Program-made: the position numbers and the translations under genes
Virus record (IMG/VR): IMGVR_UViG_3300009514_000374
Location: 1-64,000 of that record
Origin: a virus
Reading direction: 5' to 3' (one strand)
DNA length: 64,000 nucleotides
Notes under the pieces: generated by a model
Database searches by the model: none
What the model saw: the letters and a program-made list of their open reading frames with translations, nothing else
What the model was told of the DNA's origin: nothing
Shown here: piece after piece, positions 24,939 through 42,600 of the stretch
Layout: each line of letters starts with the position of its first letter
Position numbering within the stretch: the stretch's first letter is position 1

Positions 24939-24958
24939 AGGGGTGGAGGTAACGGACC

Positions 24959-26541: not shown

Positions 26542-26889
26542 ATGACCGATCATCTCCGAGCCGCAACCATTCGACTGGCTCACGAAAACCCGGAGCTTCG
26601 GCCCCTTCTCCTGCCCCTCTTGACCGCCTCGGACGACGAGGACGAAAAAGAAGGCAGGTTTGAGGAAGGCGAGGACGTTCCCCTGGACGAGCTTCCCAAG
26701 GAGCTACAAAAGAACGTCACCGATCCTCCGCCCTCCGTCGAGAAGGTCAAGGAGAAGATCAAGAGCAAGGGGCAGAGCACGAACAAGCCGCCCGGCAAAC
26801 AAGCATCGCTCCGCGAGCAGACGATCCGTCTTGCGCACGCGAAGCCCCATCTCCGCGAGCACCTTCTCCCATTGCTCAAGGGCGAGTAG
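26542..26889 (+). CDS. Tagged protein, IRLAH tag at both termini
   Basis: LRAATIRLAHENPELRPLLLPLL ... LREQTIRLAHAKPHLREHLLPLL. Confidence 0.8.
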   Translation: MTDHLRAATIRLAHENPELRPLLLPLLTASDDEDEKEGRFEEGEDVPLDELPKELQKNVTDPPPSVEKVKEKIKSKGQSTNKPPGKQASLREQTIRLAHAKPHLREHLLPLLKGE

Positions 26890-26901
26890 TCGGAGGTAGT
26901 C

Positions 26902-27630
26902 ATGGCCTTGCGGAATGACCTGATCCGATTGGCCCACGCCAATCCTGAGCTTCGCGCGAAGCTGTTGCCCTTGTTGTCCGAGCCTCGGACTGCACGGATT
27001 GCTCCGCGCGACCCCATGAGCCCGGTGACGGAGCCCAACGAGTTGAGCATGGCCGAGTCGCGGCTCCGCCTCAACGTGCTCTACGACATCGCCAACAAAG
27101 GGGACAAGCGGACCAAGCGCTTCATGGACTCGCTTGCCGAGGTTTTGCGGCAGGGAGAGCGTTTCACTGTCAAGCAGTTGGACACGCTCAACAAGGTGAT
27201 CAGGGAGAGTCGCGCCCCTTGGTTTGACATGCACAACAACCGGCAAGAGGCGTTGGCTCTGTTCAACCCTCGTGATCCGTTGATCAAGGCCAAGCTGCTC
27301 CGGCAAAAGGCGATGTGGTGGATGCGGAACGCGACGATCCGCCTGGCCTACGAGAACCCGGAGCTTCGCTCCCACCTTTTGCCGCTGCTCAAGCAGGCGG
27401 ATGGTGACCTCGACAAGCTGAAAGAAGCGGTCAAGGCCGCAGGCTCCTACATGAACGTCGGGCGTGAGCTAAAGAAGCTCGGGATCAAGTTTACCTCGAC
27501 GCTCGGTGAAGGGCCGATTCCGGCGCACTACGTTGCCACTCTTGGCGGCAAAAAGTACGGGATCATTAACAAGAAATACGCCGACGACCCTGATTTCGTC
27601 ATCGGCGAAATCGCCGTGGGAAAGCTGTGA
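26902..27630 (+). CDS. Tagged modular protein, two IRLAH tags
   Basis: LRNDLIRLAHANPELRAKLLPLL; MRNATIRLAYENPELRSHLLPLL. Confidence 0.8.
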   Translation: MALRNDLIRLAHANPELRAKLLPLLSEPRTARIAPRDPMSPVTEPNELSMAESRLRLNVLYDIANKGDKRTKRFMDSLAEVLRQGERFTVKQLDTLNKVIRESRAPWFDMHNNRQEALALFNPRDPLIKAKLLRQKAMWWMRNATIRLAYENPELRSHLLPLLKQADGDLDKLKEAVKAAGSYMNVGRELKKLGIKFTSTLGEGPIPAHYVATLGGKKYGIINKKYADDPDFVIGEIAVGKL

Positions 27631-28274
27631 ACCTCCGATCCAAATTGATCCGGCTGGCCCACGCCAACCCCGAGCTTCGGCCACACTTGTTGCCGATCGT
27701 AGCTCGATCCGCTTCCGTCGAGTTGAGTGACCTGGCGGCTCACTACCTCGACCAAGCTGCCTTCACGGGCAAGCTGCCCTTTGGGGCCAAGGAGAACGCC
27801 GTCGCGGAATTGGTCGAAGCCGGGTACGTGAAGGAGAACCCACGCCAGCATTGGGCTGGCCGTGATTTCCTGATCACCCCTGCCGGGCGCAGCGCCGCAA
27901 GGGCCAATCGCTCGATGGGCAGGACCGCGATCGGTTGGAAGAGTCTGCCGAAAGGGTGGACACAGGACTCGGTGGAGAAATTCTGGTCCTCGTTGACCGG
28001 CGACGTGAAGCACAAGGTTACCAAGTGCATCAAACGCATGGAGGACAAGATGGACGACCCAGGGGCCTTCTGTGCGAGTCTCGCCGATCAGGTCGAGGGC
28101 TCAACCGACTGGCGCAAGGGGCCTCGCAAAAAGAAGCAGGCTGACGACGGCTCGTGGATGTCCATTGAACAGGTCAAGGCTGTGTGTCCGTCGTGTGCTG
28201 TTCGCATGGCCTCGTTGGGCATGAAACGGATCAAGACAGCCGTGTTCGTGGCGGCGATGGAGCGCGCGGGATGA
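27627..28274 (+). CDS. Tagged modular protein
   Basis: LRSKLIRLAHANPELRPHLLPIV; small modules incl. DPGAFCASL and CPSC. Confidence 0.8.
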   Translation: MNLRSKLIRLAHANPELRPHLLPIVARSASVELSDLAAHYLDQAAFTGKLPFGAKENAVAELVEAGYVKENPRQHWAGRDFLITPAGRSAARANRSMGRTAIGWKSLPKGWTQDSVEKFWSSLTGDVKHKVTKCIKRMEDKMDDPGAFCASLADQVEGSTDWRKGPRKKKQADDGSWMSIEQVKAVCPSCAVRMASLGMKRIKTAVFVAAMERAG

Positions 28275-31200
28275 AGCGGGGCGGGTCGAAGCCCGGTCTT
28301 TCGGGCATAGGTGGTTTGGAGCTTGGCCTTGCCGGGATGGCGGGCGAGGGCGAGAGATTCATGCGCGAGCAGGCTGACGAGGCCATGTACGCAGAGCTAC
28401 AGACCCGCGAGGCTAAGGAATTCACGCCCGAGCAGTGGAAGCGCCACAAGGAGCAACACCCCGGCGCCAAGCGTGAGGACCACACGATCAAGCGCCCGGA
28501 GGGCAAGGGTACAAAGGACAAGCCGAAGCCGAAGCCTTCGCGGTCCAAGAGTGACGAGAAGGCGCAGAGCCGGCTCAAGAAGCGCAAGGAAAAAGAGCCG
28601 CCTCCCGCGAAGGTCGAGGATCTTCCCGAGGACGACGCCAAGAAACTCAAAGAACGCTACAGGCTTGAGATCGTCGGCGACGACGCACACAAGGCCGCTG
28701 AGATTCGCAAGAAGGTGGTCGAGGGGATCCAGATGGCGGCCGACCTGTGTAAGCAAAAGCCGCCCGTGTGCGAAGGGAACAAGGGAATCCCTCGGCACGA
28801 AATGCCGCAGATTGAGAACAAGACGATTGCGGAGATGCTCAAGGGACATCCCGGCGACCAGGCAAAGGCCAAGGCTGCCATCGCAGCGGGGGCCGACCCG
28901 GACGACGATCGGTCTATCCTCGATCAATTCGTGGACCGTCTGAAAAAGGCCGGCATCGACCACCACGACACGGAAATTCCAGTCGGAAAGCTGATGGCGA
29001 CGCAGCGGGAGTTGATCACGGACACTGTGTACGGGATCGCGGACGTGCATCTCCGGGGCAAATTCGACGCCTCCAAGGGCATCGTCGTTTCACGGGACGG
29101 CTACATTCTCGACGGACACCATCGGTGGGCTGCACTGCTCACCATCGATCCTGATCGCAAAATGGAAGCGACGGTGATCGACATGGACATGGACGACCTT
29201 TTGGCAGAGGCGCACGCACAGCCGGGCTCGTTCCTGCAAGGCATGGACGACAAGCCGCTGCCCGCCGAGAAGCAAAAGGAACACAAGAAAAAGCGCAAAA
29301 GCAAGCTCCCGAGCAAAGCCAACCCCAAGGGCAAGCCCGGCAAGCCGGAGAAAAAGGCTCACATGGACTCCCTTCGATCACAGGTCATTCGTCTCGCTCA
29401 CGCTAAGCCTGAGCTTCGTTCCAAGTTGCTGCCGCTGCTCAAAGAGGGGAAGGAGTGGCCCTCGGAGGAAGCTCGCAAAAAGTACCTCCAAGAGCATCCC
29501 AAGGCCGACCCCAAGCGCCACACGGTTCGGAGCGAGCAGCCTGGCAAGCCCAAAAAGGATGACGAGGCCGAAGCAAAGCCCAAGGTTGAGGACGAGGCGA
29601 AGGCCAAGCCTTCCAAGGGCAAGCCCGCGCCTTCCAAGGGTGACGCGGACGCGGAGAAGCGCCTCAAGCAGCGCGAGGAAGGCCATAAGCCACAAGACCC
29701 TGACCTCAAGGACTACGAGCCTCCGAGCGAGAACCCTCCCACAAAGCTCAAACCAGAGCACCTGGCCGAGATCAAGGAGTACAAACTCGACATCGTTGGC
29801 GACGACGCGGTGGCGGCTGTCGAGATCAAGCGGCGCGCCAAGGAATTCGCTGAAAAGCTCAAAAAGGGAATCAAGGAGTCGGCGGACATCTGCAAGGTGA
29901 ACCCGCCTGTGTGCGAGGGGAACATGGGCCTCACGCGCGACAAGATGCCCCAGATCACCGACGACTCCGTGCAAGACATGCTCGGAGCGATGGGCGACGA
30001 CGAGTACAAAGCCCTGGCGAAGCAGGTCGAGAAAAGTGGCCTGAAATCGATCGAGGACGCGGGGGCGCGCAAGCGGTTCCTCAAGCGGGCCAAGGGCGAG
30101 GCAGCCCTCCAGGCAGGAGCGGACCCCGACGATAAGCGCCCCGTGTTCGATCAATTTCTGGACGGGCTTGGCAAATCGGGAGTCAAGACAAAAGAGGAAA
30201 CGATCCCGGTCGGCAAGCTCAAGGCCACACAGTCGGAGATCGAAGCCGAGAAGGCGATCGGCATGGCTGATTCACACCTGGCAGGGAAATTCCCGACCAT
30301 CGACGCCTCTGTTGTTGTGTCTCGTGATGGACACATTCTCGACGGACACCATCGTTGGGCCGCCATTATGACCATCGACCCTGCTCGGGAGATGAAGGTC
30401 AAAGTGATCGACATGGACATGAAGGATCTGCTTCACGAGGCAGCATCCTTCCCTGGCGTGTTCCAGGCCGCTCTCGACTCGATGCCGCTGCCCGAGGGCA
30501 AGCAGAAGGAGTACAAGGGCAAGCACACGTCGAAGGTGATGGGGGGCGGCAAGGGTAAGAAGGCGGACGAACAAATCATCCGAGCCCACCTTGTACGGGT
30601 CGCCTACGAGAACCCTGAGCTTCGTCCGAAGCTACTCCCGCTTCTTAGGGAAGCCTTGGAGCATCCAAACGAGCAAGCCCGAAAAGAGTATCTCCGGCAA
30701 CACGAAAATGCTGACCCGAAGAACCATACGGTTCGGCGACCAAAAGGCTTGGGAAAAGTTAAGGAGTTGTTCAAGGGCGACAAAAAGCGTCGGCAGGAGC
30801 ACGAGCACTACGATCTTGAGAAGCGTAAGGAGGGTTGGCGGGACCGCAGGAAAAAAATGGACAAGATCTGGAGTACCCAGGTCGATTCCCTGCCCGCAGC
30901 GGCGCGGGCTGTGGTTGAAAGCTACCGGATGAAAGAGTGGCCGCTCATGCCTGGCTTGGGTTCGGATCCCGATCTCAGGAAACACCAGGACGAGATTGTG
31001 AGCAAGGAGCAGCATGAAAAGATCCGTAACCGGCAAGAAAAAGCCGAGGCGGAAGCCAAAAAGCTGTCTCCCGAAGCGCGTTTGAAAACGCTCCAAGAAG
31101 CATTGAGCGAAGCCAAAAAGGAACACGAAAAGCGTCGGAAGGAGAATTCCTCGTCGTTGGCGACGGCCTCTGCTTCCAAAATTCAGTGGATCCTGGCAAG

Positions 31201-31900
31201 GGAAATCAAGGCGCTTGAAGGCAAGGGTAAGAAGGCCGACAATCAGATCATCCGAGCCCACCTTGTTCGGGTCGCCTACGAGAACCCTGAGCTTCGCCCG
31301 AAGCTACTCCCGCTTCTCAAAGAGAGCTACGGCGGATTGCCGCGCTCGGCTTACTTGCCGCGCCATTTGGAAGGGGTGGACCCTGACGTGCCCACAGGTA
31401 CCGATCTGGCGATCTGGCAGTGGGAGGAAAACGGCAAGCTCTACGCGATTGCATTCCAAGGCCGAGCCAAGAAGCCCTTGTGGAATTACAGGTTCCGTAA
31501 CGAGGGAGATCGTCAGCGGCGGATCCAAGAAACGATCGAGGTTCGTCGGAAATGGATCAAAGCCAAAGCCGAGGAACGACGCAAGCGCAAGGAATACAAG
31601 CACGACTACGTGGTGGGCGACGTGTTGTACTCGTCATGGGGCTACGACCAGACCAACATCAATTTCTACGAGGTCGTCGCAACAAAGGGCAAGCAGGTTG
31701 TGGTCCGCGAGATCGGTAAGAAGGTCGTCCGTGAGGAACGTGGGGCGGACTACGTGGCAGCGGTGCCCGGCCGCTACACCGGGCCTGAGCTTCGCCGTCG
31801 TCCGTCGATGGGTGGCAGTATCAAGATCAACACCGTACAGCGGGCCTCCAAGTGGGACGGCAAGCCCAAGTACCAGACTGCATTTGGGTGGGGCCACTAG
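28271..31900 (+). CDS. Large polyvalent-type protein: two ParB/Srx-like domains, three IRLAH tags, C-terminal SWGYDQTN domain
   Basis: IPVGKL.ATQ..VVSRDG.ILDGHHRWAA twice; SSWGYDQTNINFYEV; start placed at ATGA overlap. Confidence 0.85.
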   Translation: MKRGGSKPGLSGIGGLELGLAGMAGEGERFMREQADEAMYAELQTREAKEFTPEQWKRHKEQHPGAKREDHTIKRPEGKGTKDKPKPKPSRSKSDEKAQSRLKKRKEKEPPPAKVEDLPEDDAKKLKERYRLEIVGDDAHKAAEIRKKVVEGIQMAADLCKQKPPVCEGNKGIPRHEMPQIENKTIAEMLKGHPGDQAKAKAAIAAGADPDDDRSILDQFVDRLKKAGIDHHDTEIPVGKLMATQRELITDTVYGIADVHLRGKFDASKGIVVSRDGYILDGHHRWAALLTIDPDRKMEATVIDMDMDDLLAEAHAQPGSFLQGMDDKPLPAEKQKEHKKKRKSKLPSKANPKGKPGKPEKKAHMDSLRSQVIRLAHAKPELRSKLLPLLKEGKEWPSEEARKKYLQEHPKADPKRHTVRSEQPGKPKKDDEAEAKPKVEDEAKAKPSKGKPAPSKGDADAEKRLKQREEGHKPQDPDLKDYEPPSENPPTKLKPEHLAEIKEYKLDIVGDDAVAAVEIKRRAKEFAEKLKKGIKESADICKVNPPVCEGNMGLTRDKMPQITDDSVQDMLGAMGDDEYKALAKQVEKSGLKSIEDAGARKRFLKRAKGEAALQAGADPDDKRPVFDQFLDGLGKSGVKTKEETIPVGKLKATQSEIEAEKAIGMADSHLAGKFPTIDASVVVSRDGHILDGHHRWAAIMTIDPAREMKVKVIDMDMKDLLHEAASFPGVFQAALDSMPLPEGKQKEYKGKHTSKVMGGGKGKKADEQIIRAHLVRVAYENPELRPKLLPLLREALEHPNEQARKEYLRQHENADPKNHTVRRPKGLGKVKELFKGDKKRRQEHEHYDLEKRKEGWRDRRKKMDKIWSTQVDSLPAAARAVVESYRMKEWPLMPGLGSDPDLRKHQDEIVSKEQHEKIRNRQEKAEAEAKKLSPEARLKTLQEALSEAKKEHEKRRKENSSSLATASASKIQWILAREIKALEGKGKKADNQIIRAHLVRVAYENPELRPKLLPLLKESYGGLPRSAYLPRHLEGVDPDVPTGTDLAIWQWEENGKLYAIAFQGRAKKPLWNYRFRNEGDRQRRIQETIEVRRKWIKAKAEERRKRKEYKHDYVVGDVLYSSWGYDQTNINFYEVVATKGKQVVVREIGKKVVREERGADYVAAVPGRYTGPELRRRPSMGGSIKINTVQRASKWDGKPKYQTAFGWGH
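30548..31317 (+). repeat. 98-nt direct repeat (30548-30645, 31220-31317) encoding the tag
   Basis: 92 of 98 nt identical by manual alignment. Confidence 0.9.
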
Positions 31901-31909
31901 GACAGTGCT

Positions 31910-32884
31910 GTGCGCCTCTACCATTTCACGAGCACGTTCCATCTCCAGTCGATCCTAGATCGCGGGATTTCCCGAGGGGATGTGCCCACGTCCCCTGGCG
32001 GTGGTTTCAACGCGCCGTGGCTCACGAAAAACAAGAACCCGCGAGGTCAAGCATGGGCCGGGGGCTCGTTCAAGACAGCGGTGCGTATCACCGTTGAGAT
32101 CCCCAACAGCGACCCCAAGCTCAAGCACTGGCCTGAGCTTGCAGCCGAAAAGAACGTCTCGGACTCGTGGTTCCTGGCGCTCGACAAGGCGGGTGGCGGT
32201 GGCTCGGACGACTGGTACATCTACATGGGCTCGATCCCCGTGAGCCGGATCAAAGAGGTCGAGGTCAACGGAAAGACGGTGAAGGTCGGGAAAGCGGTGG
32301 GCTTCCATGGATGGAAGATGTCACCAGAGTCGATGCGCTTGCCCGGCCCACAATTCACCGACAAGAAACCGATCCCGGCCGAGGACATCGAGGAAGCCGT
32401 TGAGTATCTGGACGAGGTAAAGCCCGGTGTGCTCGTCGGCTACAGTCGCGGCGGTGCCATCACCATGCTCGCGCTACGCAAGCACCGGGGCGCCAAACCC
32501 AAGGTGATCTACGTGGCGCCGGCTTGGCTCCGAGGGTGGGCTCATGCTCAGCCACCGCACACCCAAGGCGTGATCCTCCACGGGGACAAGGACAAGCACG
32601 TTCCCCTGGAGCACTCCTGTGAGCTTGCCAAGGACACGGGGATGCCGCTTCGCGTCGTGGAGGACAGGAACCACATCACGATCCTCAAGGACAAGCTCAA
32701 CCCGAATGCAGGCAAGCCCGTGCCGCGCTCGATGTTGGACGACTGTGTGAACAAGTTGCCTGATTGGGGCACGAGCGGCGTGGGCACCCCTGAGCAGGTG
32801 AAGCAGCAACAGGAATTCGCAGACCGCCTTGGGATGGCGGTCAAAGTAGCCGCCCGCTATCTCAACGGGGGCTCTCGCCGGTAG
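31910..32884 (+). CDS. ART-like N-terminal domain fused to alpha/beta hydrolase, C-terminal KVAARYL tag
   Basis: LYHFTS..SILDRGI..WLT; GYSRGG, HGDKDKHVP, NH triad. Confidence 0.7.
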   Translation: MRLYHFTSTFHLQSILDRGISRGDVPTSPGGGFNAPWLTKNKNPRGQAWAGGSFKTAVRITVEIPNSDPKLKHWPELAAEKNVSDSWFLALDKAGGGGSDDWYIYMGSIPVSRIKEVEVNGKTVKVGKAVGFHGWKMSPESMRLPGPQFTDKKPIPAEDIEEAVEYLDEVKPGVLVGYSRGGAITMLALRKHRGAKPKVIYVAPAWLRGWAHAQPPHTQGVILHGDKDKHVPLEHSCELAKDTGMPLRVVEDRNHITILKDKLNPNAGKPVPRSMLDDCVNKLPDWGTSGVGTPEQVKQQQEFADRLGMAVKVAARYLNGGSRR

Positions 32885-32939
32885 GTACCGATTGGCGGGT
32901 CGATGGCGATACTCCGAACCTTCCCCGTGAACGCGGAGC

Positions 32940-33431
32940 GTGCGGGTGAAAGGCCCGCCCATCTCGGTACAGTGGTGCATGGGCATTGTGGCTCCCCGAA
33001 AGCCGTGGGCGAAAGGCGCTCACGGGAATTACTCGTGCTTCACCATCGAGGTAATGGTCGTCCGCGACGCCCAAGGCGACGTGTGGAGCCAACACGACTT
33101 ACAATCGGATCAGGATCGGGAGGTTGCTGGAGCGATGCCAAGCGGAGGCATCGAACAGGCGGCACATGCGCTATTGTGCGAGTCGATCAAGCGCGAGGCG
33201 CTGCTCGACATCCTGATCAAGATGTCCAACGATCCTGTATTCCGCGAGGAAATTCGGGACGAGAGCCCGGAAACGGTGAAACGCCTCTCGGATGGCGTAG
33301 TAAATGCTATCCTCGGGACATTCCAGCAAGCGGTGGTGAAATTGGGGCCGGAAGCGGCGCGAGGGGCGCTCGACCTAATTCGCCAGGAGATGAATGAGCA
33401 AGAAACGAAACCCGGACCCGACGATGTTTGA
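32940..33431 (+). CDS. Hypothetical protein
   Basis: ORF; start uncertain. Confidence 0.55.
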   Translation: MRVKGPPISVQWCMGIVAPRKPWAKGAHGNYSCFTIEVMVVRDAQGDVWSQHDLQSDQDREVAGAMPSGGIEQAAHALLCESIKREALLDILIKMSNDPVFREEIRDESPETVKRLSDGVVNAILGTFQQAVVKLGPEAARGALDLIRQEMNEQETKPGPDDV

Positions 33432-33630
33432 GCGGAACGCACAGGCCATGAAGCCCGTTCTGGAGCGTCGGCACGCCGCGAGCCAGCGAGCTATCCTACT
33501 GCGGCTCCAAGCCGCTCTGGAGGCCGGTGAGGACGTTGAGGCGGCTGTCACGGAGGCTGCGTCGGACGTGTACTGGCAAGGCGTGAAGGACGGGCTCGAT
33601 TTGACCCTCCCGAACCCCGACGCGGCCTGA
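33394..33630 (+). CDS. Hypothetical protein
   Basis: AGGAG RBS. Confidence 0.55.
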   Translation: MSKKRNPDPTMFERNAQAMKPVLERRHAASQRAILLRLQAALEAGEDVEAAVTEAASDVYWQGVKDGLDLTLPNPDAA

Positions 33631-33686
33631 TTCGCCCACGTTTTTCGGCCTATGCGCCCCCTAGGAATAGGGAGTCCTACGCGCGC

Positions 33687-34544
33687 GTGCCGATTGATTG
33701 GGATACTCAGCCCCTCGGGCAAATGACCGACGCTTCTTTGGCGGACAGGATTGGTGTGTCCTCTGGAGTGGTTCAGTACCAGCGCGCGAAACGCAAGATC
33801 CGACCTTTTCATCCGAATCGATCGATCAAAGGGATCCAATGGGACGACCAACCGCTAGGGCAGGTTAGCGATTCGGATCTTGCCCGCCAACTTGGAGTCG
33901 CCCCTGCCGTGGTGTGTAACGCCCGAAAAAGAAGAGGGATTGTAGCACTCACTCCCCGTTGTGCAGAGGTCGATTGGCGTACCCTTCCCCTCGGTGATTT
34001 TCCCGATCAAGCGATTGCGTCTTTGATCGGTGTGTCGCAGCCGACCGTCACCCGCCATCGTAATCGGCTTGGAATTGCTCCTTGTAAGCATCCGTTTCTG
34101 ACAAAAGAAGGGCGCGCTGCCAATTACCCCGAAGCCCTAATTGATCTGTACTGGCACGAGAGGAATATCGAGCACGAATTCCAGGTCCCGATCGGCCAGT
34201 ACATCGCTGATTGGGTTTTGGAAGGCAGACAAGTCGTAGAGTATGCTGGATTTTCGGCGAGCCCTCGATGGGGCAAGGCTTATCGGGCTCGTTTGCGTGA
34301 AAAGGTTGGCTTTTATACCTCAGAGGGGTGGGAGGTCCGTGTGATCTGGCCCCAAGATCTCAAAGAATACGATCTCGGTTTTCGACCCAAACCTTGTCGG
34401 GATCTGAGGTCCAATGGGGTTGTCTGGTCGGAGCAGCCTTTGGGGCAGATGCTTGACACCGCCCTGGCAAAACACCTTGGCGTGACTCAATCCACGGTTA
34501 CACGATGGCGGCAAAAGCTCGGCATCCCAAGATACCATGCGTAA
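33687..34544 (+). CDS. Homing-endonuclease-like protein: four HTH repeats plus PD-(D/E)xK/Vsr-like domain
   Basis: W..QPLG..D..LA..LGV repeat x4; YIADW..VVEYAG..GWEVRVIW; visibly lower GC than neighbours. Confidence 0.7.
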   Translation: MPIDWDTQPLGQMTDASLADRIGVSSGVVQYQRAKRKIRPFHPNRSIKGIQWDDQPLGQVSDSDLARQLGVAPAVVCNARKRRGIVALTPRCAEVDWRTLPLGDFPDQAIASLIGVSQPTVTRHRNRLGIAPCKHPFLTKEGRAANYPEALIDLYWHERNIEHEFQVPIGQYIADWVLEGRQVVEYAGFSASPRWGKAYRARLREKVGFYTSEGWEVRVIWPQDLKEYDLGFRPKPCRDLRSNGVVWSEQPLGQMLDTALAKHLGVTQSTVTRWRQKLGIPRYHA

Positions 34545-35139: not shown

Positions 35140-36545
35140 GCCGTTCCCGCCTTACCGATCCTAGCCGCATCGAGAACAAGTGGGGTCAGACCCTTGGCAA
35201 GAAGGCCGCCAGGGCTCCCTCGGGACTCTACGGGTATCCCAAATCGATCCAAGCCTCGTGCGAGGCCAGCGTTCGCAAGCTGCGGAAGGCCGCACTCAAG
35301 ATCGTCAAGGCCGCGTACCAGAAGGACGCCAAGGTCGCCGATTTCCTTGAGGTCCACGCCAAGCGAAACAAGAGCGTCCCGGCCAAGGTGCTGCTCGCCA
35401 CGCTCAACGAGGCTCGTCCTGTGTTCGGCAAGTTTGGCGTCGAGGGTGGCAAGACAGCGGCCCGAGGACGGTACGGGCTCTATGGCTACCCGGCCCGCAC
35501 CGCCAGCCTCGGTGTCCAGGCGTGTGCCCAATTCCGTGAGGCGGCGGGGCACATCGCTTCGGATCTTCACCGACGCAAGGCGGCTAAGTACGAGCGCATC
35601 ACCGGGTTTCTCCAGTCACACTGGAAACAAGGCAAGTGCGGCTACTCCCGCTTGCTCCACGCGAGCTACCCCGATGCCTCGATGCGGCTTGCATCTGGCG
35701 CCGAGAAACAATCGGGCCGTAAGCAAGCTGGCCCTGGCGCTGGCGTGGATGTGATCCTCTCGGGCGATAAGCGAGGGTATCGCTTGCCTGACCGCATTGA
35801 CTACGACGGCGACCTCAAGGTCACAGAGAAGGGGAAAGTGACGGGAAAAGCAACCTGTACGAACCTTTACATCGCCTCGTACTACGACAGCGCCTTCATT
35901 CGTAACCCCGGCACGATCGAGGTTGACGATTTGGGGGATGCTTTCACCGACGAGATGGAATACGTGTTCGGCCCGGAGGGGAAGCAAGGTAAGGTCAAGC
36001 TCACCGCTCAGGTCAGTGGCGTGGAGAATGCCATGCTGAGCGGTGGGTACGTCCGCAGCAATGCCCCCTCGCATTTCGATGTCAAAGGCGTCTTGCTGGT
36101 CGAGGTTGAGGATGAAGGCGGCTACGTCGGATCCTTTGAGGTACCTTTCGACGGCACCATGAACACAACGCCTGCGTTCAAAGAGGCGTGGGAAAGCCTG
36201 GACGACCCGGATTGGGACGAGCGTGACGAGGACGGGAACTTCATCGAGGAAGGCCCCGAAAAGCGCTTTGCTTCGGGACCACCTACGACGGTTGCTGGCT
36301 GGCTCGGAGAATCCAAGACGGCGGGGTCCTACCTCACCGTCGTCCCGGCCCACGGACGCGACTACAGCAGCAAGGCGGCCGTGATGAAGGATTGGGCCGA
36401 CAACATGGATTTCCTCGTCATGGATATGTCGTCCCCTTGGGACGGCAAGCCGATCAACAAGCAGGATGCCGACAACGCTGGCAACTTGCGCGCGATCAAC
36501 ATCCGCTACAACAAGCTGCGCAAGGTCGTAGTGATCAACCTCTAG
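35136..36545 (+). CDS. Modular phage protein with duplicated GLYGYP domain
   Basis: GLYGYP twice; modules separated by KTA/KQA/RFA; C-terminal PAHGRDYSSK module. Confidence 0.75.
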   Translation: MSRSRLTDPSRIENKWGQTLGKKAARAPSGLYGYPKSIQASCEASVRKLRKAALKIVKAAYQKDAKVADFLEVHAKRNKSVPAKVLLATLNEARPVFGKFGVEGGKTAARGRYGLYGYPARTASLGVQACAQFREAAGHIASDLHRRKAAKYERITGFLQSHWKQGKCGYSRLLHASYPDASMRLASGAEKQSGRKQAGPGAGVDVILSGDKRGYRLPDRIDYDGDLKVTEKGKVTGKATCTNLYIASYYDSAFIRNPGTIEVDDLGDAFTDEMEYVFGPEGKQGKVKLTAQVSGVENAMLSGGYVRSNAPSHFDVKGVLLVEVEDEGGYVGSFEVPFDGTMNTTPAFKEAWESLDDPDWDERDEDGNFIEEGPEKRFASGPPTTVAGWLGESKTAGSYLTVVPAHGRDYSSKAAVMKDWADNMDFLVMDMSSPWDGKPINKQDADNAGNLRAINIRYNKLRKVVVINL

Positions 36546-36549
36546 TCCG

Positions 36550-37137
36550 ATGTCAATTTCTCTCCGCGAAGGCGTCCAAGCGGACGTAGAACTGATGAAA
36601 GGCGGGGACCGCTTCCCGGTCGCCGCAGGTCCAATTCTACGCAGCACGGGTTGGCGCGGGGGCCTTTGGGTTCGTTACGTTCCACCCACGGGCGCCGATG
36701 ATTTCGTGGTCGAGGCAAGTGACGGCATCGACGGCACGGGGTTCTTGTTGTTCCCGAGCGAGAACTACAGCACGCCAGGCGGTTTCGCCTCCGGCGTGGC
36801 ACAAACTACCAACGAGCAAAATTGGACCTCGTACCAATTCACGACTGAGCCTGCGGTCGCCACGAACGTCGTGACGATGGTGAACGGAGGCACCCGAGTC
36901 CTGTTCCGCGTGTTTGAGACGGTGAGCCTGACGGGCGCTGGCGTCCGCTCGGGTCCACCGATCACGTACAGCCTCAACGACCCGCTCAAAATCAGCGAGA
37001 ATGGCTTGCTGTGCAACGACCCCGACGCAGCCTTGCTGGCCGCAACCGGGGGCGTGGTGACTCTCGTCGTGGGGTTCTGTTGCTCGGTGCCGTCACCCCG
37101 CAACGACAACCGACTCGGGCTCGACCTCAAATTCTAG
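36550..37137 (+). CDS. Hypothetical beta-rich protein, possibly head decoration
   Basis: Gly/Thr/Val-rich; YSLNDPLKISENGLL..LGLDLKF. Confidence 0.5.
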   Translation: MSISLREGVQADVELMKGGDRFPVAAGPILRSTGWRGGLWVRYVPPTGADDFVVEASDGIDGTGFLLFPSENYSTPGGFASGVAQTTNEQNWTSYQFTTEPAVATNVVTMVNGGTRVLFRVFETVSLTGAGVRSGPPITYSLNDPLKISENGLLCNDPDAALLAATGGVVTLVVGFCCSVPSPRNDNRLGLDLKF

Positions 37138-37139
37138 CC

Positions 37140-38902: not shown

Positions 38903-39076
38903 GAAAACAGCGGATCCGTAGGTCCACAAGTCCAAGCTGGAAAGAGCCGAGAAATTCTGCGCATTTGGGCGGCGGTTTTCCACCCTTTCCCCAAGCTCCG
39001 GCCGCGAGGAATTTGGGGGCGATCTCCTTGCTCGGTGGCTGGAATACTCGGGCTATAGCTACCCCTGTGCGAGAGC

Positions 39077-40372
39077 ATGAGCGCCTACCTCACAAGCCTT
39101 TTTCGCCGGGCCTCCAAGACCCCTGTGACGGAGCCCTCCCACCTACGGGTGGCAGGACGCTACCTACGGGCCTATCTGAGCCCGAAAACAGACCTCTTGG
39201 CCCGCGTCCAGATGCTTGAGGGTGCGGCAGACGTGCCCCGAGGGGCTTGGACACGGCGGCTCGTACCGGCCGAGGCCAAGGACTATTTCGGGGAGGGCCT
39301 GGCCCCGGAGTGGACGCTTCGATCCGATTCAGGGCTCGCCAATGCAGCCGTCGAGGCAGTCAAAAAGAACATCGGTGAGCACGGCACTCCGGGTGTGATC
39401 CGATCCAAGCTCCGCGATATGTCGGCCGACGAGATGGTGAATTCGTTTATTGGGGGGTTGTGGCCTTGGCCCGCCCCCTCGTACTACGAGTGCCTCCAGT
39501 GTGGCAAGCGGTCCAAGAAGGACATTTCTAAGTGCCCCAAGTGCGGGGGAGAGGTTGAGCCGAGGGGTGCTGAGCACTCGATTATGAAGGCACCGCCCTT
39601 CTACGCCATCGGACAGAAGATGGACGAGCCGACCATCGAGGGTTTGCGTGACGGCTCGATCAAACCTGACCGCTTCACCCCCATTGTGTACTCGTGGGTG
39701 CAGCAACGTGCTCGTGACGAGCTACGCAAGTGGATGCGCGCTGTGGGCCGGGGCAGGGGACATGAGACTGAGTGGCTCCCCTCGGGAACCTCGCGCTTTG
39801 ACGTGATGGAAACCGACGCTGAACCCACCAGCGTTCTGTCTCGGATTCTCGGGATGAAGCACAACCCCAAGGCGAAGCGCCTGCGCAAGCTCTTGCGGGC
39901 CATCTCGGACGAGAACCCCCGCCGCGCCGATGCCGAGGTATTCAAGGAATTCCTGTCGATCATCGAGGGGATGTCGGCCGGGGAAACCTCCGTGGAATTC
40001 GGCCGGGTGGATGAACGCGGTATCCCGCGTGGGATTTCTGGAGTCATCGCCGAGCGCATGGGCAAGTCCCGGCAATTTGCTGGTCAGGCTCTCAAGCGGT
40101 CCTTTGAATTCTTGGCCGAGCGAGCCCAACGCAAACCGCAGCTAAAGCGTCTGTGGGAGGAAATCAGGGATGCCGAATTTGGAGCCGGGGAAATGGGTCG
40201 TTCCGCTTCGGCTACCGAGGAATTCCTGGCGGACCTCCAAGCATGTGGCGACGAGGTAATGGCTGCGTGCGACGCTGACGAGCACGAGGCTGATCGCACC
40301 GTCACTGTTGGACCTCTGGAGCTTACGATCGGGAAATTCCCCGGAGCGGGGTCGGGTGCCTACAGCAAGTAA
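39077..40372 (+). CDS. Divergent sigma-factor-like protein with RVAGRYL tag and zinc ribbon
   Basis: FTPIVYSWVQQRARDELRK (region 2.3-2.4-like); VIAERMGKSRQFAGQALKRS (region 4.2 HTH-like); CLQC..CPKC. Confidence 0.5.
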   Translation: MSAYLTSLFRRASKTPVTEPSHLRVAGRYLRAYLSPKTDLLARVQMLEGAADVPRGAWTRRLVPAEAKDYFGEGLAPEWTLRSDSGLANAAVEAVKKNIGEHGTPGVIRSKLRDMSADEMVNSFIGGLWPWPAPSYYECLQCGKRSKKDISKCPKCGGEVEPRGAEHSIMKAPPFYAIGQKMDEPTIEGLRDGSIKPDRFTPIVYSWVQQRARDELRKWMRAVGRGRGHETEWLPSGTSRFDVMETDAEPTSVLSRILGMKHNPKAKRLRKLLRAISDENPRRADAEVFKEFLSIIEGMSAGETSVEFGRVDERGIPRGISGVIAERMGKSRQFAGQALKRSFEFLAERAQRKPQLKRLWEEIRDAEFGAGEMGRSASATEEFLADLQACGDEVMAACDADEHEADRTVTVGPLELTIGKFPGAGSGAYSK

Positions 40373-40769
40373 ACCTTCGGCGCTTCGGGTTGCTCGGCTT
40401 TTCACAGCCCGTGCTGCCGAGGGCGACTGCTACGAGGCCGCCGCGAATTACATCGTGGAGCGCGGCCTTGGGCTATGGGGCGGCAAGGGCAAGCCCAAAT
40501 CAGGCTTGATTCTCGTCCATGGCGAGGTAGCGGGCCAAGGTCCGTTGGAGGGTGTCAATTTTGGGCACGCGTGGGTGCTCGACGGCAACACCGTGATCGA
40601 CAACTCCAATGGTCGGAACCTGCGGATGCCGAAATCCGCTTACTACGCGCTCGGCAAGATTGACGAGATCAACAATTTCCACGAGTACGATGTCGAGACG
40701 GCCCGACACATGCTGCTTCGGTTCAAGACCTACGGGCCGTGGGATCTGGAAACCTCGACAGGTCTGTGA
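40356..40769 (+). CDS. Transglutaminase/papain-fold protein with RVARLF tag
   Basis: GDCYEAA..LVHG..GHAWVLDG..VID (C-H-D); GTG start inferred. Confidence 0.65.
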   Translation: MPTASKPSALRVARLFTARAAEGDCYEAAANYIVERGLGLWGGKGKPKSGLILVHGEVAGQGPLEGVNFGHAWVLDGNTVIDNSNGRNLRMPKSAYYALGKIDEINNFHEYDVETARHMLLRFKTYGPWDLETSTGL

Positions 40770-41551
40770 TGCCGAAGATTCTTTTCACTGGACCCTCGCG
40801 TAAGCGGAAGCGGATCAAGCGGAAGCTGATCGAGGAAATGGAGCACCCGGAACTGCGGGTCGCGTCTCGATACCTCCAAGCGCGTGGGATGTACGACGAG
40901 GCGGAGCGGGAGCTTCGCAAGAAAGACCCGGATGGCTTCTGCATGGCGTTGCCGGGGACGGTCGTGTTTCAGCACTTGAATCTGAGCCCGCGCGGCAAGG
41001 TGATGAAGTGGTTTTCGATCCACGATCCCCCAACAGCCAGCGCCAAGGTCGTTGGGCACATCGCGGGGCTCGTGCAGACGAATGCCACGTTTGTCGTCGG
41101 GGAAGCCGGCTACAAGCAGGTGTCCGTGCTCGACAAGCCCAAGTTTGTGTTCGCCGGGGCGGTCGGAAAGCTCGTCGCCGTGGACGGTGCCGGCGGGGAT
41201 GAATTCGGAACCGTGCCCTCACGGGACCAGGAATGGATCCGATACAACCCCAAAAAGCGCGACGAAGGTCTGATCGCCCGATGGTTCTGCCGCCAGAATC
41301 CTGAGACTGGCGAATGGGACATCCCCGTGATCAAGGCACGTCGCGTGGTCGCACGAGGGCACAGGATCTACGCGAGCGGCATCACGGACATGCCCCGCAA
41401 ACACTACGAGCCGCTGCTTGAGCAGTTGGGGCTTGGCGCCTACCAGGCGGCCTCGATCAAACTGGCACACGAGGACAGCGAGCACGGGCCGCACATCCTC
41501 GCCATTCACCGAGAAGCCTTGCGTGCTCTCGATGGGGAACCAAACACATGA
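40769..41551 (+). CDS. Tagged hypothetical protein
   Basis: PELRVASRYL near N-terminus; degenerate IKLAHED..HGPHILAI at C-terminus. Confidence 0.65.
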   Translation: MPKILFTGPSRKRKRIKRKLIEEMEHPELRVASRYLQARGMYDEAERELRKKDPDGFCMALPGTVVFQHLNLSPRGKVMKWFSIHDPPTASAKVVGHIAGLVQTNATFVVGEAGYKQVSVLDKPKFVFAGAVGKLVAVDGAGGDEFGTVPSRDQEWIRYNPKKRDEGLIARWFCRQNPETGEWDIPVIKARRVVARGHRIYASGITDMPRKHYEPLLEQLGLGAYQAASIKLAHEDSEHGPHILAIHREALRALDGEPNT

Positions 41552-42600
41552 GTCTCCGCAACAAAGCGATTAAGCTCGCCTACGAAAACCCCGAACTACG
41601 TGATGCGATCCTGCCGATCGTCACGGCCAAGGAGCACGCGACTGAGGACGCCCGCCGCAAGTACCTCCAAGAGCACCCCAAGGCTGATCCGGCGAAGCAC
41701 ACGATCAGGACCAAAAAGCCTCGCAAGAAAAAGGGGCCGTCTGAGAAGGACAAGGAAATCCTCAAGATCTTGGACGAGCACGACAAGGAGCAAGCCTTGC
41801 TCGCAGAAAAAGCCATCGCCGAAAGGGTGAAGGCTGAGCAGGCCAAATCGGACGAACGAGCCAAGGCTCGTGCGGAACGAGCCAAGGGGAAGGCGCCTCC
41901 GCATTTGGAGGGGCTGTCAAAGCACCTCCAAGACGCCGTGGGCAAGATGCCTACCAAGGGCATGGACAAGGAAGAAGCCTACAGCCACCCGAAGATCAAG
42001 GCGATGGCAAAGGCGCTGATGAAGCTCCCACGCGGAACCGTCGCTCGTATGTACGAGCAGCTACAAACTCGGATGCTTGAGCTTGGGCAGCCTGAGAAGC
42101 GCGGAGAACCGGGACGTGATGACGCCTTGAATCAGATTCATGCCGCGTGGCGTGCAACCAACGATGCCCTGTTCACGATGGGAGACGCACACAAGGAACG
42201 CGAAAAGGGCGAGGGCATGGGCAAATACCTTCCACGCGCTGAGTTGAAAAAGCGCCGCAAGGTTGAGCTAGATCTCGACCCCTTGAAAGACCTCCAGGGG
42301 CACAAGAAATCCGATCCGGTCTACAAGGTGCTCAAGGAGTACCGGAACGACGGAAAATACGTTCGGCTCAAGACGTTGGAGAAGGCGATCACGCATCTCG
42401 ACAAGATGCTCGACAACCCGGCTCACGACGGCGACGAGGACAAGATCGAGAAGGCCAAGAAGCTGCTTGAAAGGATCAATCGCGGAGGCCCCGAGTCTCG
42501 TCCGTCGAAAAAGGGCAGCCTTCGCAGCGGTCTGATCCGTCTGGCCCACGCTCGCCCTGACCTCCGTGATCGGCTGCTGCCTCTGCTCGCAAAGGACTAG
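41548..42600 (+). CDS. Tagged basic protein, IRLAH-type tags at both termini
   Basis: LRNKAIKLAYENPELRDAILPIV; KYLQEHPKADP; LRSGLIRLAHARPDLRDRLLPLL. Confidence 0.8.
   Translation: MSLRNKAIKLAYENPELRDAILPIVTAKEHATEDARRKYLQEHPKADPAKHTIRTKKPRKKKGPSEKDKEILKILDEHDKEQALLAEKAIAERVKAEQAKSDERAKARAERAKGKAPPHLEGLSKHLQDAVGKMPTKGMDKEEAYSHPKIKAMAKALMKLPRGTVARMYEQLQTRMLELGQPEKRGEPGRDDALNQIHAAWRATNDALFTMGDAHKEREKGEGMGKYLPRAELKKRRKVELDLDPLKDLQGHKKSDPVYKVLKEYRNDGKYVRLKTLEKAITHLDKMLDNPAHDGDEDKIEKAKKLLERINRGGPESRPSKKGSLRSGLIRLAHARPDLRDRLLPLLAKD

Follow-up and report, generated by a model that had tools for sequence, protein, structure and literature searches.

A 25-residue peptide tag reused on unrelated proteins of a clade of uncultured huge phages is a candidate portable docking module

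The window, a stretch of 64,000 nucleotides that forms positions 1 to 64,000 of the virus record IMGVR_UViG_3300009514_000374 in IMG/VR and belongs to a 141-kb contig, contains several dissimilar proteins with a short peptide in common, which raises the question of whether this peptide is a module in its own right and what it does for the proteins that carry it. The peptide, here called tag A, has 25 residues and the consensus LRxxLIRLA[HY]xNPELRxxLLPLL. A preliminary description had counted ten clear copies in five ORFs, at N-termini, at C-termini or between domains; searches with a regular expression and with a profile HMM derived from the copies give the same ten at those places and no more (four N-terminal, two C-terminal and four internal; Table 1), with independent E-values of 1e-12 to 1e-16 each, and neither search finds a copy in another frame or on the other strand of the window. 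An additional degenerate copy reported in ORF 40739 lacks statistical support (domain E = 10, and no match at E <= 1 in a second search) and is at most a decayed relic. Five further copies lie on the contig outside the window (at 74706, 75009, 80904, 83540 and 115632), for a contig total of 15 copies in nine ORFs (E-values of 1e-9 to 1e-16 each), every one of them read in frame within a + strand ORF. No entry of Pfam, PHROG, NCBIfam or PDB covers tag A, in agreement with the initial view that it matches no named family.

Table 1. Positions of tag A copies, their carrier proteins and associated features in the window
Feature	Position	Strand	Description or evidence
Promoter-like site GGTTTCG-N17-CGTCTTAG	24910..24940	+	heads gene string 24959-37137, including carriers 1-4
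Carrier 1	26542..26889	+	115 aa: tag, acidic/basic module D (..FEEG..), tag
Tag A copy 1, N-terminal	26554..26628	+	HMM i-E 2e-13
Tag A copy 2, C-terminal, preceded by G-K-Q-A-S	26809..26883	+	HMM i-E 3e-14
Carrier 2	26902..27630	+	242 aa: tag, module, tag, module; no known family
Tag A copy 3, N-terminal	26908..26982	+	HMM i-E 1e-13
Tag A copy 4, internal	27322..27396	+	HMM i-E 7e-16
Carrier 3	27627..28274	+	215 aa: tag and ~70-aa module
Tag A copy 5, N-terminal	27633..27707	+	HMM i-E 8e-14
Carrier 4, polyvalent-type	28271..31900	+	1209 aa
First ParB/Srx-like nuclease core (DGHHR) of carrier 4	29093..29317	+	PF08857 E 1.4e-4 (under the curated cutoff), NF053625 (local match), tblastn
Tag A copy 6, internal	29372..29446	+	HMM i-E 6e-14
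Motif C (..ARKKYLQEHPKADPxxHTV)	29453..29527	+	directly 3' of tag copy 6
Other motif C copies	28415-28489 (variant), 30659-30733, 41632-41706		
Second ParB-like module of carrier 4	30146..30541	+	phrog_2859 E 4e-40
Tag A copy 7, internal	30578..30652	+	HMM i-E 1e-12
Tag A copy 8, internal	31250..31324	+	HMM i-E 2e-13; near-duplicate of copy 7
C-terminal domain of carrier 4	31427..31882	+	phrog_37844 (PHROG match)
Carrier 5	41548..42600	+	350 aa: tag, motif C, helical K/E-rich region, tag
Tag A copy 9, N-terminal	41554..41628	+	HMM i-E 2e-13
Tag A copy 10, C-terminal	42520..42594	+	HMM i-E 3e-12

With the tags masked, the only likeness left among the carriers of the window is a second short motif in ORFs 28271 and 41548, which bears out the description of the flanking domains as mostly unrelated. 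The linker of carrier 1 is a conserved module (D) that is repeated in relatives, and the ~70-aa module of carrier 3, whose ORF 27627 has 4-nt start and stop overlaps with the adjoining ORFs, recurs in seven of the top 150 tagged proteins. Carrier 4 consists, in order, of a motif C variant, a ParB-like module, a tag, motif C, the second ParB-like module, a tag, motif C, a spacer, a tag and the phrog_37844 domain; both ParB-like modules match a single L059 protein, and the tblastn matches of the first core are to phage proteins. Motif C in other proteins starts 10-19 aa past the end of the tag in 18 of 22 cases. Most carriers are small, with one or two modules, and small tag-module-tag proteins constitute a conserved class. 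Recognisable tagged domains elsewhere are ART-PolyVal (twice), RNA ligase, DUF2958, WGR, RelA/SpoT, GNAT and pentapeptide; the recognisable carriers are of conflict type (ParB-like nuclease, ART-PolyVal, RelA/SpoT, pentapeptide). No replication or core metabolic enzyme is found among 196 tagged proteins scanned, and the HMM finds no tag in the PhoH, RNR, RecD2-like helicase, TerL, portal, protease or MCP of the contig, so that the reported absence from replication genes holds. In their domains, the recognisable carriers partly coincide with the set of polyvalent proteins that are predicted to be packaged in heads (PMC5512222).

Tag A is under selection at the protein level. Its near-random codon choice shows that the conservation is that of the protein: identical residues of the tag copies have identical codons at a frequency of 0.40, versus 0.34 expected from codon usage. 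The sole conserved codon choice is GAG-CTT, and it is conserved because the genome avoids GAGCTC and GAGCTG (GAGCTC has zero occurrences genome-wide versus 46 expected, and 97 of the 142 Leu codons after GAG are CTT). The nucleotide string GAGCTTCG, present in ten of the 15 copies, might suggest that the tag is a chance similarity or a repeat of the DNA, such as a mobile or recombination sequence that happens to be translated, but this reading has practically no probability and is refuted by the E-values of the copies, all in frame in + strand ORFs, by the randomised synonymous sites, by the genome-wide rule behind GAG-CTT and by the thousands of diverged protein copies elsewhere.

A profile search finds tag A in 3,758 protein-cluster representatives (at E <= 1e-3), nearly all on huge-phage contigs of 100-536 kb with a common 290-aa capsid protein. 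IMG/VR contains 54 tag A loci, mostly on contigs of 100-536 kb, and three complete or near-complete genomes (437-536 kb) have 9-17 copies each. The tag is absent from two cultured relatives, and no cultured phage was found to have it; among 185,579 cellular genomes there are only two matches, both on phage-like MAG contigs. As far as these matches indicate, tag A is restricted to phages, and to one clade of uncultured huge phages.

Among the top 150 tagged proteins, 349 tags are distributed as 112 N-terminal, 54 C-terminal and 183 internal; the N-terminal tags most often begin with MS-LR, 27 of the 54 C-terminal tags finish exactly at residue 25, and K, E, G and D are frequent beside the tags. 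Carriers often have two to five copies, the commonest architectures being an N-terminal tag plus internal tags (63 'Ni' and 13 'Nii' among the 150 proteins). The 285 inter-tag segments fall into 157 families, of which 117 are singletons, and 23 of 199 inter-tag gaps are 20 aa or shorter, with a mode of exactly 7 aa. Gene fusions and splits occur exactly at tag borders: the cassette of a tag and phrog_37844 that is fused in carrier 4 is a stand-alone gene in L049 (L049:4879-5556). A Dps-like protein that has no tag in this genome is tagged in L049 and L051, and the 787-aa protein of this phage that ends with a second tag, tag B (RVAxRF), has an ortholog in L044 that ends with tag A, while none of the 150 tag A proteins carries tag B as well. 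Tag A is a portable, position-independent module that is interchangeable with tag B.

AlphaFold predicts tag A to be a helix-break-helix, which supports, as a prediction, the helix-Pro-helix shape first proposed for it, and the polar residues R2, R7, H/Y10, N12 and R16 are invariant; Foldseek and sequence searches with the tag return no match. Very probably, tag A is a portable docking module. It would be a self-contained alpha-hairpin of ~25 residues, with LRxxLIRLAH as helix 1, an Asn-Pro N-cap and PELRxxLLPLL as helix 2, and would act as a protein-protein docking label that the huge-phage clade attaches via flexible charged linkers to the termini or module joints of accessory proteins. The tagged proteins would be collected in one shared assembly, several tags per protein would give higher binding avidity, and small tag-module-tag proteins would be crosslinkers or adaptors. 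We infer the docking, what the tag binds (another tag, or some conserved component of the head) and the capsid destination: the prohead interior would be the most likely assembly, with the carriers as cargo entering with the DNA, and docking of the carriers there for delivery is put forward tentatively, at a little less than an even chance.

The genome encodes a prohead protease, a separate scaffold-like protein of 430 aa that is very acidic, and an HK97-type MCP of 290 aa with no delta domain. No other protein of the tag-bearing clade comes near the MCP in conservation (78-94% identity versus 33-63% for portal, protease and TerL), which makes it a plausible constant partner for a peptide that itself hardly varies. 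Small tagged genes in relatives are variable inserts directly after portal/MCP or before TerL, and in one complete relative a 30-kb region around MCP and portal holds 13 of the 17 tags, but in three other large relatives only one or two of 9-12 tags are near them. Only 12 of the 54 tag loci are within 10 kb of head genes, and ten of the 15 tags of this contig are 45-60 kb from the head module. There are six GGTTTCG-N17-CGTCTTAG sites versus 0.18 expected; apart from the one listed in Table 1, such GGTTTCG...CGTTAG sites lie ahead of small genes within the first 55 kb; none was found in the head module. After the listed site, no + strand terminator-like site occurs before 37053, and the main tagged cluster of the window probably sits behind a GGTTTC-type promoter, the type that the preliminary description took to be non-head. 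Its claim that the tag is absent behind GGTTTC motifs is correct for the first gene after each site but not for the gene string headed by the site at 24910-24940, which holds the main cluster; likewise, its portable module on unrelated proteins stands, but its capsid address meets an inconsistent gene position.

The scatter of tagged genes, often distant from head genes, and the probable promoter type of the window cluster would suit a localisation signal that acts in the cell or in a phage-built compartment, apart from packaging, with the host polymerase, the ribosome, the membrane or a replication compartment as the hub; for carriers such as ParB-like nuclease, Dps-like protein, RNA ligase and RelA/SpoT, action in the cytoplasm after ordinary expression would be just as conceivable. 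Such a role is considered unlikely: a peptide aimed at the host should differ from host to host, but the tag is near-invariant among phages whose other proteins are 30-55% identical; it follows a clade of phages that an ultra-conserved MCP marks out; and the search of cellular genomes found neither a homolog in a host nor a cellular occurrence. About as doubtful is a network without a dedicated receptor, inside the head or in a cytoplasmic complex or condensate, in which two hairpins pair as a four-helix bundle, tagged proteins bind each other, multi-tag proteins are hubs and tags A and B are two orthogonal networks. A natural 63-aa protein consisting of a tag, a 7-aa linker and a tag is predicted by AF2 to form a four-helix bundle (mean pLDDT 85, pTM 0.63, and pLDDT 80-85 across all five models), although this is a single-sequence model of a tiny helical protein, a class prone to over-confidence, and intramolecular contact in a tandem does not demonstrate intermolecular contact. 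Pairing would also be consistent with the recurrent tight tandems, the conserved class of small tag-module-tag proteins, the mutual exclusion of tags A and B and the size of a 25-residue amphipathic hairpin, presumably too small to be stable alone. However, the 115-aa carrier 1 is modelled as two helix-break-helix units (pLDDT 80-89, linker 59-67) with a pTM of 0.26 and no sign of the tags packing together, and the invariant polar residues also fit recognition by a separate partner.

Less probable still is a polyprotein junction, in which the tag is not an address but an exosite for a phage protease that cuts beside it and releases the modules. The predominance of (tag-module)n architectures and the fusion and splitting of genes exactly at tags are compatible with such a junction, as is a G-K-x-A-S that recurs upstream of internal tags (K 0.39, A 0.39, S 0.43) and resembles the K-T-A-S/A-L-K/R-P that the scaffold-like protein has in its conserved C-terminal region; a helix N-cap would explain the Ser before the tag equally well. 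The [ASG]xE motif, which is cut by prohead proteases of giant phages (PMC5694885), is ~fivefold enriched at +3 and +4 of the tag, yet occurs in ~10% of tags per position. Every candidate site motif is found in a minority of tags only, and no consistent protease site was found beside the tag; moreover, a cleavage site needs far fewer than 25 conserved residues, about half of the tags are at extreme protein ends with nothing to cut, and stand-alone single-module proteins retain the tag.

A portable docking module of this kind has several partial counterparts. The scaffolding protein of P22 binds the inside of a delta-less HK97-fold coat through a C-terminal helix-loop-helix, which can pull fused cargo into procapsids and in bivalent forms scaffolds; the 80alpha scaffold and CpmB of SaPI1 have a common C-terminal capsid-binding helix. 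Tag A resembles these small amphipathic units in its two predicted helices and conserved basic residues, with the MCP as a candidate partner, but theirs are C-terminal only and limited to one or two proteins per phage, whereas tag A is on many proteins at any position, and the separate acidic scaffold-like protein of this phage has its own, different conserved C-terminus. Cargo-loading peptides of encapsulins and encapsulation peptides of bacterial microcompartments are terminal, joined by flexible linkers, and send diverse enzymes to the lumen of a shell; encapsulin shell proteins have the HK97 fold and about the size of this MCP, and microcompartment peptides are amphipathic helices at either terminus. 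The proposed shell address of tag A is similar in its linkers and diverse carriers; the cellular peptides, however, are shorter (~10-18 residues, a single helix or extended segment) and have no sequence relation to tag A, which the search of cellular genomes found on phage-like contigs only. The D/D domain of PKA RII and the docking domains of polyketide synthases are helix-turn-helix units of ~25-40 residues, portable between carriers, two of which form a four-helix bundle and thereby hold different proteins together; tag A is likewise portable and is predicted to have two helices, with pairing suggested by one single-sequence model, but has no sequence or Foldseek match to them.

The T4 capsid targeting sequence (CTS) of IPI-III and Alt (Mullaney and Black 1996) consists of 10-20 residues, is found only at the N-terminus, attaches to the scaffolding core, is cleaved off by gp21 after Glu and is portable to foreign proteins (PMC5694885). 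Like tag A, it is a short peptide common to otherwise unrelated proteins with a proposed role in prohead entry; unlike it, tag A is longer, occurs at either end or internally, often in two to five copies, and has neither a consistent Glu cleavage site nor sequence similarity, and the parallel drawn initially with the T4 leader does not extend to these points. Polyvalent proteins of phages and conjugative elements (Iyer, Burroughs, Anand, de Souza, Aravind 2017) are single polypeptides that string together unrelated conflict domains (ParB-like nuclease, ART-PolyVal, RelA/SpoT, 2H and others) with predicted co-delivery with DNA, and ParB, ART and RelA/SpoT are assigned to those of phages, which are predicted to be head-packaged; that work invokes MuF and a Zn-peptidase (MPTase) for packaging and processing and describes no short tag between domains (PMC5512222). 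MuF and MPTase domains were not found in the tag A carriers searched, most of which are small rather than giant polypeptides, but the 1209-aa carrier 4, with its two ParB-like modules, fits the domain-string syntax of polyvalent proteins.

The 25-residue peptide LRxxLIRLA[HY]xNPELRxxLLPLL (tag A, hereafter the tag) is a real, unnamed peptide module of the portable targeting or docking kind, widespread in one clade of viruses. The ten copies that the preliminary description had placed in five ORFs of the window (starting at 26542, 26902, 27627, 28271 and 41548) were recovered at the same coordinates by a loose regular expression and by an HMM derived from the copies, each of which gives exactly ten, all in frame on the + strand; the degenerate copy ascribed to ORF 40739 could not be upheld, its domain E value being 10 and a 100-sequence profile giving no match there at E ≤ 1. 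Four of the ten start at residue 3-5, two end no more than two residues from the stop and four are internal. In a six-frame HMM search of the contig (the whole IMG/VR record, a single contig of 141,007 bp that CheckV estimates at ~30% of the genome), individual copies score E = 1e-12 to 1e-16. Five more tags lie beyond the window, at 74706, 75009, 80904, 83540 and 115632, for a contig total of 15 tags in nine ORFs. With the tags masked, one other short motif is all that these nine carriers have in common.

Of the 349 copies in the 150 top-scoring proteins, 112 are at the N-terminus, 54 at the C-terminus and 183 internal. The commonest N-terminal form is Met-Ser with the tag directly after it, and half of the C-terminal tags stop exactly at residue 25; the unit is thus complete in itself. 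Positions L1, R2, L8, A9 (99%), P13, R16 (98%), L20 and P21 are near-invariant, and R2, R7 and R16 are conserved at 74-98%. About 60% of copies are preceded by Ser, Thr, Asn or Asp; Asn12-Pro13-Glu14 reads as a capping box that, with this preceding residue, would fit helix N-caps. In agreement with the helix-Pro-helix form proposed earlier, AlphaFold2 run on the 115-aa product of ORF 26542 with no alignment predicts in each tag two helices, the first of 11-13 and the second of 11-12 residues, separated by a single-residue break at Asn-Pro, with pLDDT of 80-89 in the tags and 59-67 in the stretch between them. Lys, Glu, Gly and Asp abound in the flanks, G-K-x-A-S recurs ahead of internal tags, and [ASG]xE is about fivefold enriched downstream of the tag at +3 and +4 and upstream at -3 (8-10% of tags per position). 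Two other identities were considered and rejected: a classical DNA-binding helix-turn-helix is unlikely, as the hydrophobic/Gly pattern, aligned on the invariant Ala and judged by inspection, does not fit; and a double-glycine leader that would serve the C39-like peptidase encoded nearby would require GG after the tag, which it lacks. As a candidate genome-wide marker of cut sites, K-x-A-[SA]-L-[RK] gave too few matches to be of use (3 in the contig vs 0.75 expected).

No named family had been recognized in the tag from the sequence, and database searches bear this out for Pfam, PHROG, NCBIfam and the PDB: Pfam-A, PHROGs v4 and NCBIfam 20 contain no family over the tag in the nine carriers at E ≤ 0.1, a tag profile gives among PDB sequences a chance match to a designed repeat protein and nothing else, Foldseek of the double-tag model against the PDB and an ESM Atlas look-up return nothing usable, and the motif string was not found in the searchable literature. 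Word-indexed homolog searches with the tag region returned few candidates, and an exhaustive profile search was required; run on 1.84 billion cluster representatives, it recovers 3,758 proteins with E ≤ 1e-3, of which 371 reach E ≤ 1e-10. In IMG/VR, 54 loci match a strict pattern; most are on contigs of 100-536 kb, and together they contain 137 tags, with frequent runs of three to eight adjacent tagged genes; three complete or near-complete relatives (437-536 kb) have 9, 11 and 17 tags. Of the phages in INPHARED just one matches, a metagenomic phage of 485 kb that is unannotated; no tag is present in Tunturi_5 or phage G under the same search that recovers all 15 contig copies; and 185,579 prokaryote species, with one genome each, yield two matches, both on short MAG contigs with viral-locus-like genes, one of which bears a tagged ParB-like protein. 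This viral-only spread indicates that the tag is specific to one clade of huge phages.

Compared in pairs, the tag copies have a mean residue identity of 0.58 and a mean base identity of 0.61, and the same codon is used at identical residues with a frequency of 0.40 vs 0.34 expected from contig codon usage. Codon identity this near expectation implies that the copies are old and have been kept by selection on the peptide, and a DNA-level repeat or mobile element is rejected, nucleotide identity being no higher than the protein demands. The only conserved codon choice in the tags, GAG-CTT for Glu-Leu, agrees with a genome-wide rule: across the contig CTT encodes 97 of the 142 Leu residues that follow a GAG codon, and in 141 kb GAGCTC occurs 0 times vs 46 expected and GAGCTG once vs 50 expected. 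The 6-bp palindromes GAGCTC, CTGCAG, GATATC, GTCGAC and CCCGGG are absent from the contig (each 0 vs 19-110 expected), and GAATTC is in excess (92 vs 19 expected). This pattern looks like restriction-site avoidance, which would account for the choice of GAG-CTT.

The tag behaves as a unit that is fused and exchanged. A cassette of tag plus phrog_37844 domain forms the C-terminus of the 1209-aa carrier (ORF 28271) and is a stand-alone 226-aa gene in L049, a stretch from a tag-bearing relative; the 115-aa ORF reappears as a repeated unit within longer proteins of relatives; and the Dps-like protein encoded before the terminase large subunit (TerL) gene is untagged here, has a C-terminal tag in L051 and is followed by two tags in L049. 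The tag can also be replaced by a second, dissimilar one (tag B): a 787-aa protein (contig 136103-138466) terminates in tag B (..RVARRFL..), and its ortholog in L044, with 29% identity in the N-terminal third and 52% in a Cys/His motif near the end, terminates in tag A. The tag B pattern is found in about a dozen contig proteins and in 0 of the 150 tag A proteins; its bearers in the window region include a C39-like cysteine peptidase, an alpha/beta hydrolase and a 794-aa protein with an HExxH motif. Two small modules accompany the tags. Motif C (..A-x-E-[HFW]-x-[ST]-x-E-A-x-K-x-Y-L-x-x-H-P-x-A-D-P-x-x-H-T-V), a further portable unit besides tags A and B, follows three tag A copies and one tag B copy in the contig and elsewhere begins 10-19 residues past a tag in 18 of 22 cases; its leading A-x-E fits the cut motif of giant-phage prohead proteases. 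Module D (window 26629-26808), which separates the two tags of the 115-aa protein as a conserved linker (..K-E-G-[KR]-F-E-E-G-..), has the same place in small tag-module-tag proteins and is repeated along with tags in relatives, commonly as the variant R-F-E-E-G-x-x-A-D-P-T-x-N-M; since it is conserved, the 115-aa protein is more than its tags alone. The gap between tags is 20 residues or fewer in 23 of 199 cases, with a mode of exactly 7.

The proteins that carry the tag are diverse. Single-linkage clustering lumped 106 of 150 of them through shared motif C and module D, and clustering at the level of segments was used instead: the 285 stretches of 40 residues or more that flank or separate tags form 157 families, of which 117 are singletons. 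The 93 multi-tag proteins include pentapeptide repeats, GNAT, RelA/SpoT, WGR, DUF2958, DUF7717 and other domains, once or twice each, and the 103 tagged ORFs of viral loci include ART-PolyVal (2), DUF2958 (3), WGR (2), RNA ligase, pentapeptide and DUF5710 domains; the PHROG matches of carriers have no function attached. No replication or core metabolic enzyme domain was found among the 196 tagged proteins scanned, and no MuF or Zn-peptidase (MPTase) domain in the carriers scanned. The earlier remark that replication genes lack the tag holds in the window, where PhoH-PIN, PAS-GGDEF-EAL, ribonucleotide reductase and a RecD2-like helicase are all untagged.

The bipartite motif GGTTTCG-N15-17-CGTCGTTAG/A has 6 matches in the contig vs 0.18 expected from shuffles, all directly upstream of gene starts and all in the first 55 kb. 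The preliminary description had set the tagged genes apart from genes behind the GGTTTC motif, a statement that needs qualifying because one of these sites (24910-24940) stands at the head of a + strand gene string (24959-37137) that holds four of the five tagged ORFs of the window (26542 to 28271), with no + strand terminator-like site before 37053. If the GGTTTCG...CGTTAG class is early, it would weigh against late, head-linked expression. Enrichment of k-mers in intergenic DNA gave no late-promoter candidate, and a sigma-70 scan found fewer sites than in shuffles, with only the GGTTTCG...CGTTAG type emerging. Within the string of tagged genes sits a gene for a 285-aa repeat protein, and elsewhere in the window the PAS-GGDEF-EAL protein is predicted to be cyclic-di-GMP turnover machinery encoded by a huge phage.

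Positions of accessory motifs, promoter-like sites and selected genes in the window and the contig
Feature	Coordinates	Strand	Remarks
PIN-PhoH fusion protein	window 1751-3010	+	PhoH E 1e-48, PIN_4 E 3e-21
PAS-GGDEF-EAL protein, 677 aa	window 4082-6115	-	EAL E 4e-71, GGDEF E 2e-43
Bipartite promoter-like motif	window 13267-13295, 16817-16845, 54450-54478, 54879-54907	-	
Bipartite promoter-like motif	window 24910-24940, 44988-45017	+	
Bipartite promoter-like motif	17214-17258	-	spotted by eye
285-aa protein	window 33687-34544	+	about four helix-turn-helix repeats (..QPLGQ..D..LA..LGV....V...R...GI..)
Tag B (R-[VI]-A-x-x-[FYWH])	window 42631-42651		N-terminus of ORF 42604-44988
Tag B	ORFs 31910-32884, 34537-35139		at C-termini
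Tag B	ORFs 39077-40372, 40739-41551		near N-termini
Motif C	window 28415-28489, 29453-29527, 30659-30733, 41632-41706		
Motif C	contig 93155-93230		after a tag B
Dps/ferritin-like N-terminal domain, 431-aa protein	contig 81224-82519 (L001:17224-18519)		upstream of TerL
TerL	contig 84344-86380		
Portal	contig 86980-88980		
Prohead protease, 484 aa	contig 98501-99955		
Acidic scaffold-like protein, 430 aa	contig 99977-101269 (L002:15977-17269)		
HK97-type major capsid protein (MCP), 290 aa	contig 102138-103010 (L002:18138-19010)		phrog_2522, E 2e-49
L001 and L002 are stretches of this contig.

The head module lies 45-60 kb downstream of the ten tags of the window. A 220-aa protein occupies the place of the decoration gene of phage G. 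The scaffold-like protein has a D/E-rich variable body, and its last ~50 residues (..K-T-A-[SA]-L-[KR]-P-Q-P.., ..V-S-K-T-A.., ..L-S-K-L-W-x-S-A-P-D-V-S-x-[IV]-F-G), strongly conserved across relatives, are likely a capsid-binding and processing region. An 830-aa ORF right after the MCP gene (contig 103119-105611) has a LAGLIDADG homing-endonuclease domain (E 1e-21, L002:19119-20000). The MCP family is extensive and highly uniform: of its 2,052 clusters, the top 120 show 90-100% identity throughout, on contigs of up to 527 kb. Among cultured phages, the most similar MCP is that of Tunturiibacter phage Tunturi_5 (48%), ahead of those of Bacillus phage G (38%) and cluster-C mycobacteriophages (28%); the resemblance to the Tunturi_5 protein hints at a host among the Acidobacteriota. 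All five relatives tested share this MCP and portal, and identity within the clade is 78-94% for MCP, an unusually static capsid protein, but only 33-63% for portal, protease and TerL. Small tagged genes in relatives are variable inserts between conserved late genes: after the portal gene in L014, after the MCP gene in L007, L012, L040, L044 and L049, and in the block before TerL in L035, L041, L051 and L052. The link between tags and head genes that the preliminary description proposed to look for with a profile is evident in a complete 437-kb genome, where 13 of 17 tags at 216-247 kb flank MCP (231 kb) and portal (240 kb), but not in three other records, with tags within ~10 kb of the head module numbering 2 of 11 (485 kb), 1 of 9 (536 kb) and 1 of 12 (249 kb); overall, a head gene is present in 12 of 54 tag loci, with no clear excess. 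Co-folding of MCP (25-row alignment) with the tag (100-row alignment), run without controls, scored 0.00, which speaks neither for nor against binding.

The tag is probably an autonomous docking module, because it is a complete, position-independent unit on flexible linkers, with strongly constrained hydrophobic and polar positions and multiple copies in single proteins, interchangeable with another tag and limited to one phage clade. A purely proteolytic junction cassette would account for G-K-x-A-S and for the partial enrichment of [ASG]xE, but does not explain why tags should be terminal or why 25 residues should be conserved. What the tag docks on is less certain. The best single guess, made tentatively, is the capsid interior, the sole phage structure known to admit many unrelated proteins by short signals; besides this precedent, the guess relies on the recognizable carriers, which look like predicted delivered effectors, and on MCP, the one clade protein that matches the tag in invariance. 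Docking of the carriers on a hub outside the virion is possible. Homotypic pairing of tags into a four-helix unit is a live alternative, and one that could also take place in the capsid: a natural 63-aa protein made up of two tags seven residues apart is predicted to fold as a compact four-helix unit (pLDDT 85, pTM 0.63).

A more elaborate scheme, which we consider unlikely, is that the clade uses a two-channel address code in which tags A and B load fused modules into the networks of large capsids for co-delivery with DNA. Tag A (an alpha-hairpin) and tag B (RVAxR[FYWH]) would be unrelated, mutually exclusive and interchangeable; each would pair homotypically or with its own receptor; attachment of a tag to either end of a module would thereby admit that module to a distinct internal protein network; and fusion and fission at tag borders would freely reshuffle the set of cargo.

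Should the tag prove to be an address label, the huge phages known solely from metagenomes would have their first defined general cargo-loading signal, one that marks thousands of proteins and is active at either terminus or between domains; hypothetical accessory genes would become a predictable set of delivered effectors, revealing the weapons brought into the cell ahead of gene expression, and a small position-independent handle would be available to load foreign proteins into very large capsids. Even with a destination other than the capsid, a strongly constrained 25-residue module with an interchangeable second tag would represent an undescribed organizing principle.

Among known systems, the carriers recall the polyvalent proteins of phages, the domains of which include ParB-like DNases, ARTs and RelA/SpoT and which are argued to be packaged in the head, P1 DdrB being the experimental precedent (Iyer et al., PMC5512222); the tag is not described in that study (PMC5512222). 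The 1209-aa carrier, with two ParB/Srx-like nuclease modules (DGHHR) and a C-terminal phrog_37844 domain, is the only one to combine at least two unrelated effector-type domains and qualifies as polyvalent-type, and tagged proteins of relatives include ART-PolyVal, RelA/SpoT, GNAT and RNA ligase. A MuF or MPTase domain, or neighbouring late or virion genes, would be expected of polyvalent proteins; no such domain was found in the carriers scanned, and tagged genes adjoin head genes in some relatives and are distant from them in others. By analogy, the tag would be most like, in its working, the T4 capsid targeting sequence, the coat-binding helix-loop-helix of P22 and the loading peptides of encapsulins and microcompartments, and differs from all three in having no sequence relation to them, in standing at either terminus or internally and in occurring in several copies. 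The parallel with T4 internal proteins drawn in the preliminary description may hold for the working but not for the form: the T4 sequence is a strictly N-terminal propeptide of 10-20 residues (PMC5694885), whereas the tag has 25 residues and just 112 of its 349 copies are N-terminal; and the T4 propeptide is removed by the prohead protease, which cuts after Glu, at (L/I)xE in T4 and (A/S/G)xE in giant phages (PMC5694885); next to the tag the latter motif is enriched yet present at each position in only 8-10% of copies, with no consistent Glu cut site. Encapsulin peptides are shorter than the tag. With the scaffold helix-loop-helix of the P22 type the tag shares two short amphipathic helices, as predicted by AlphaFold2, and conserved basic residues (R2, R7 and R16).
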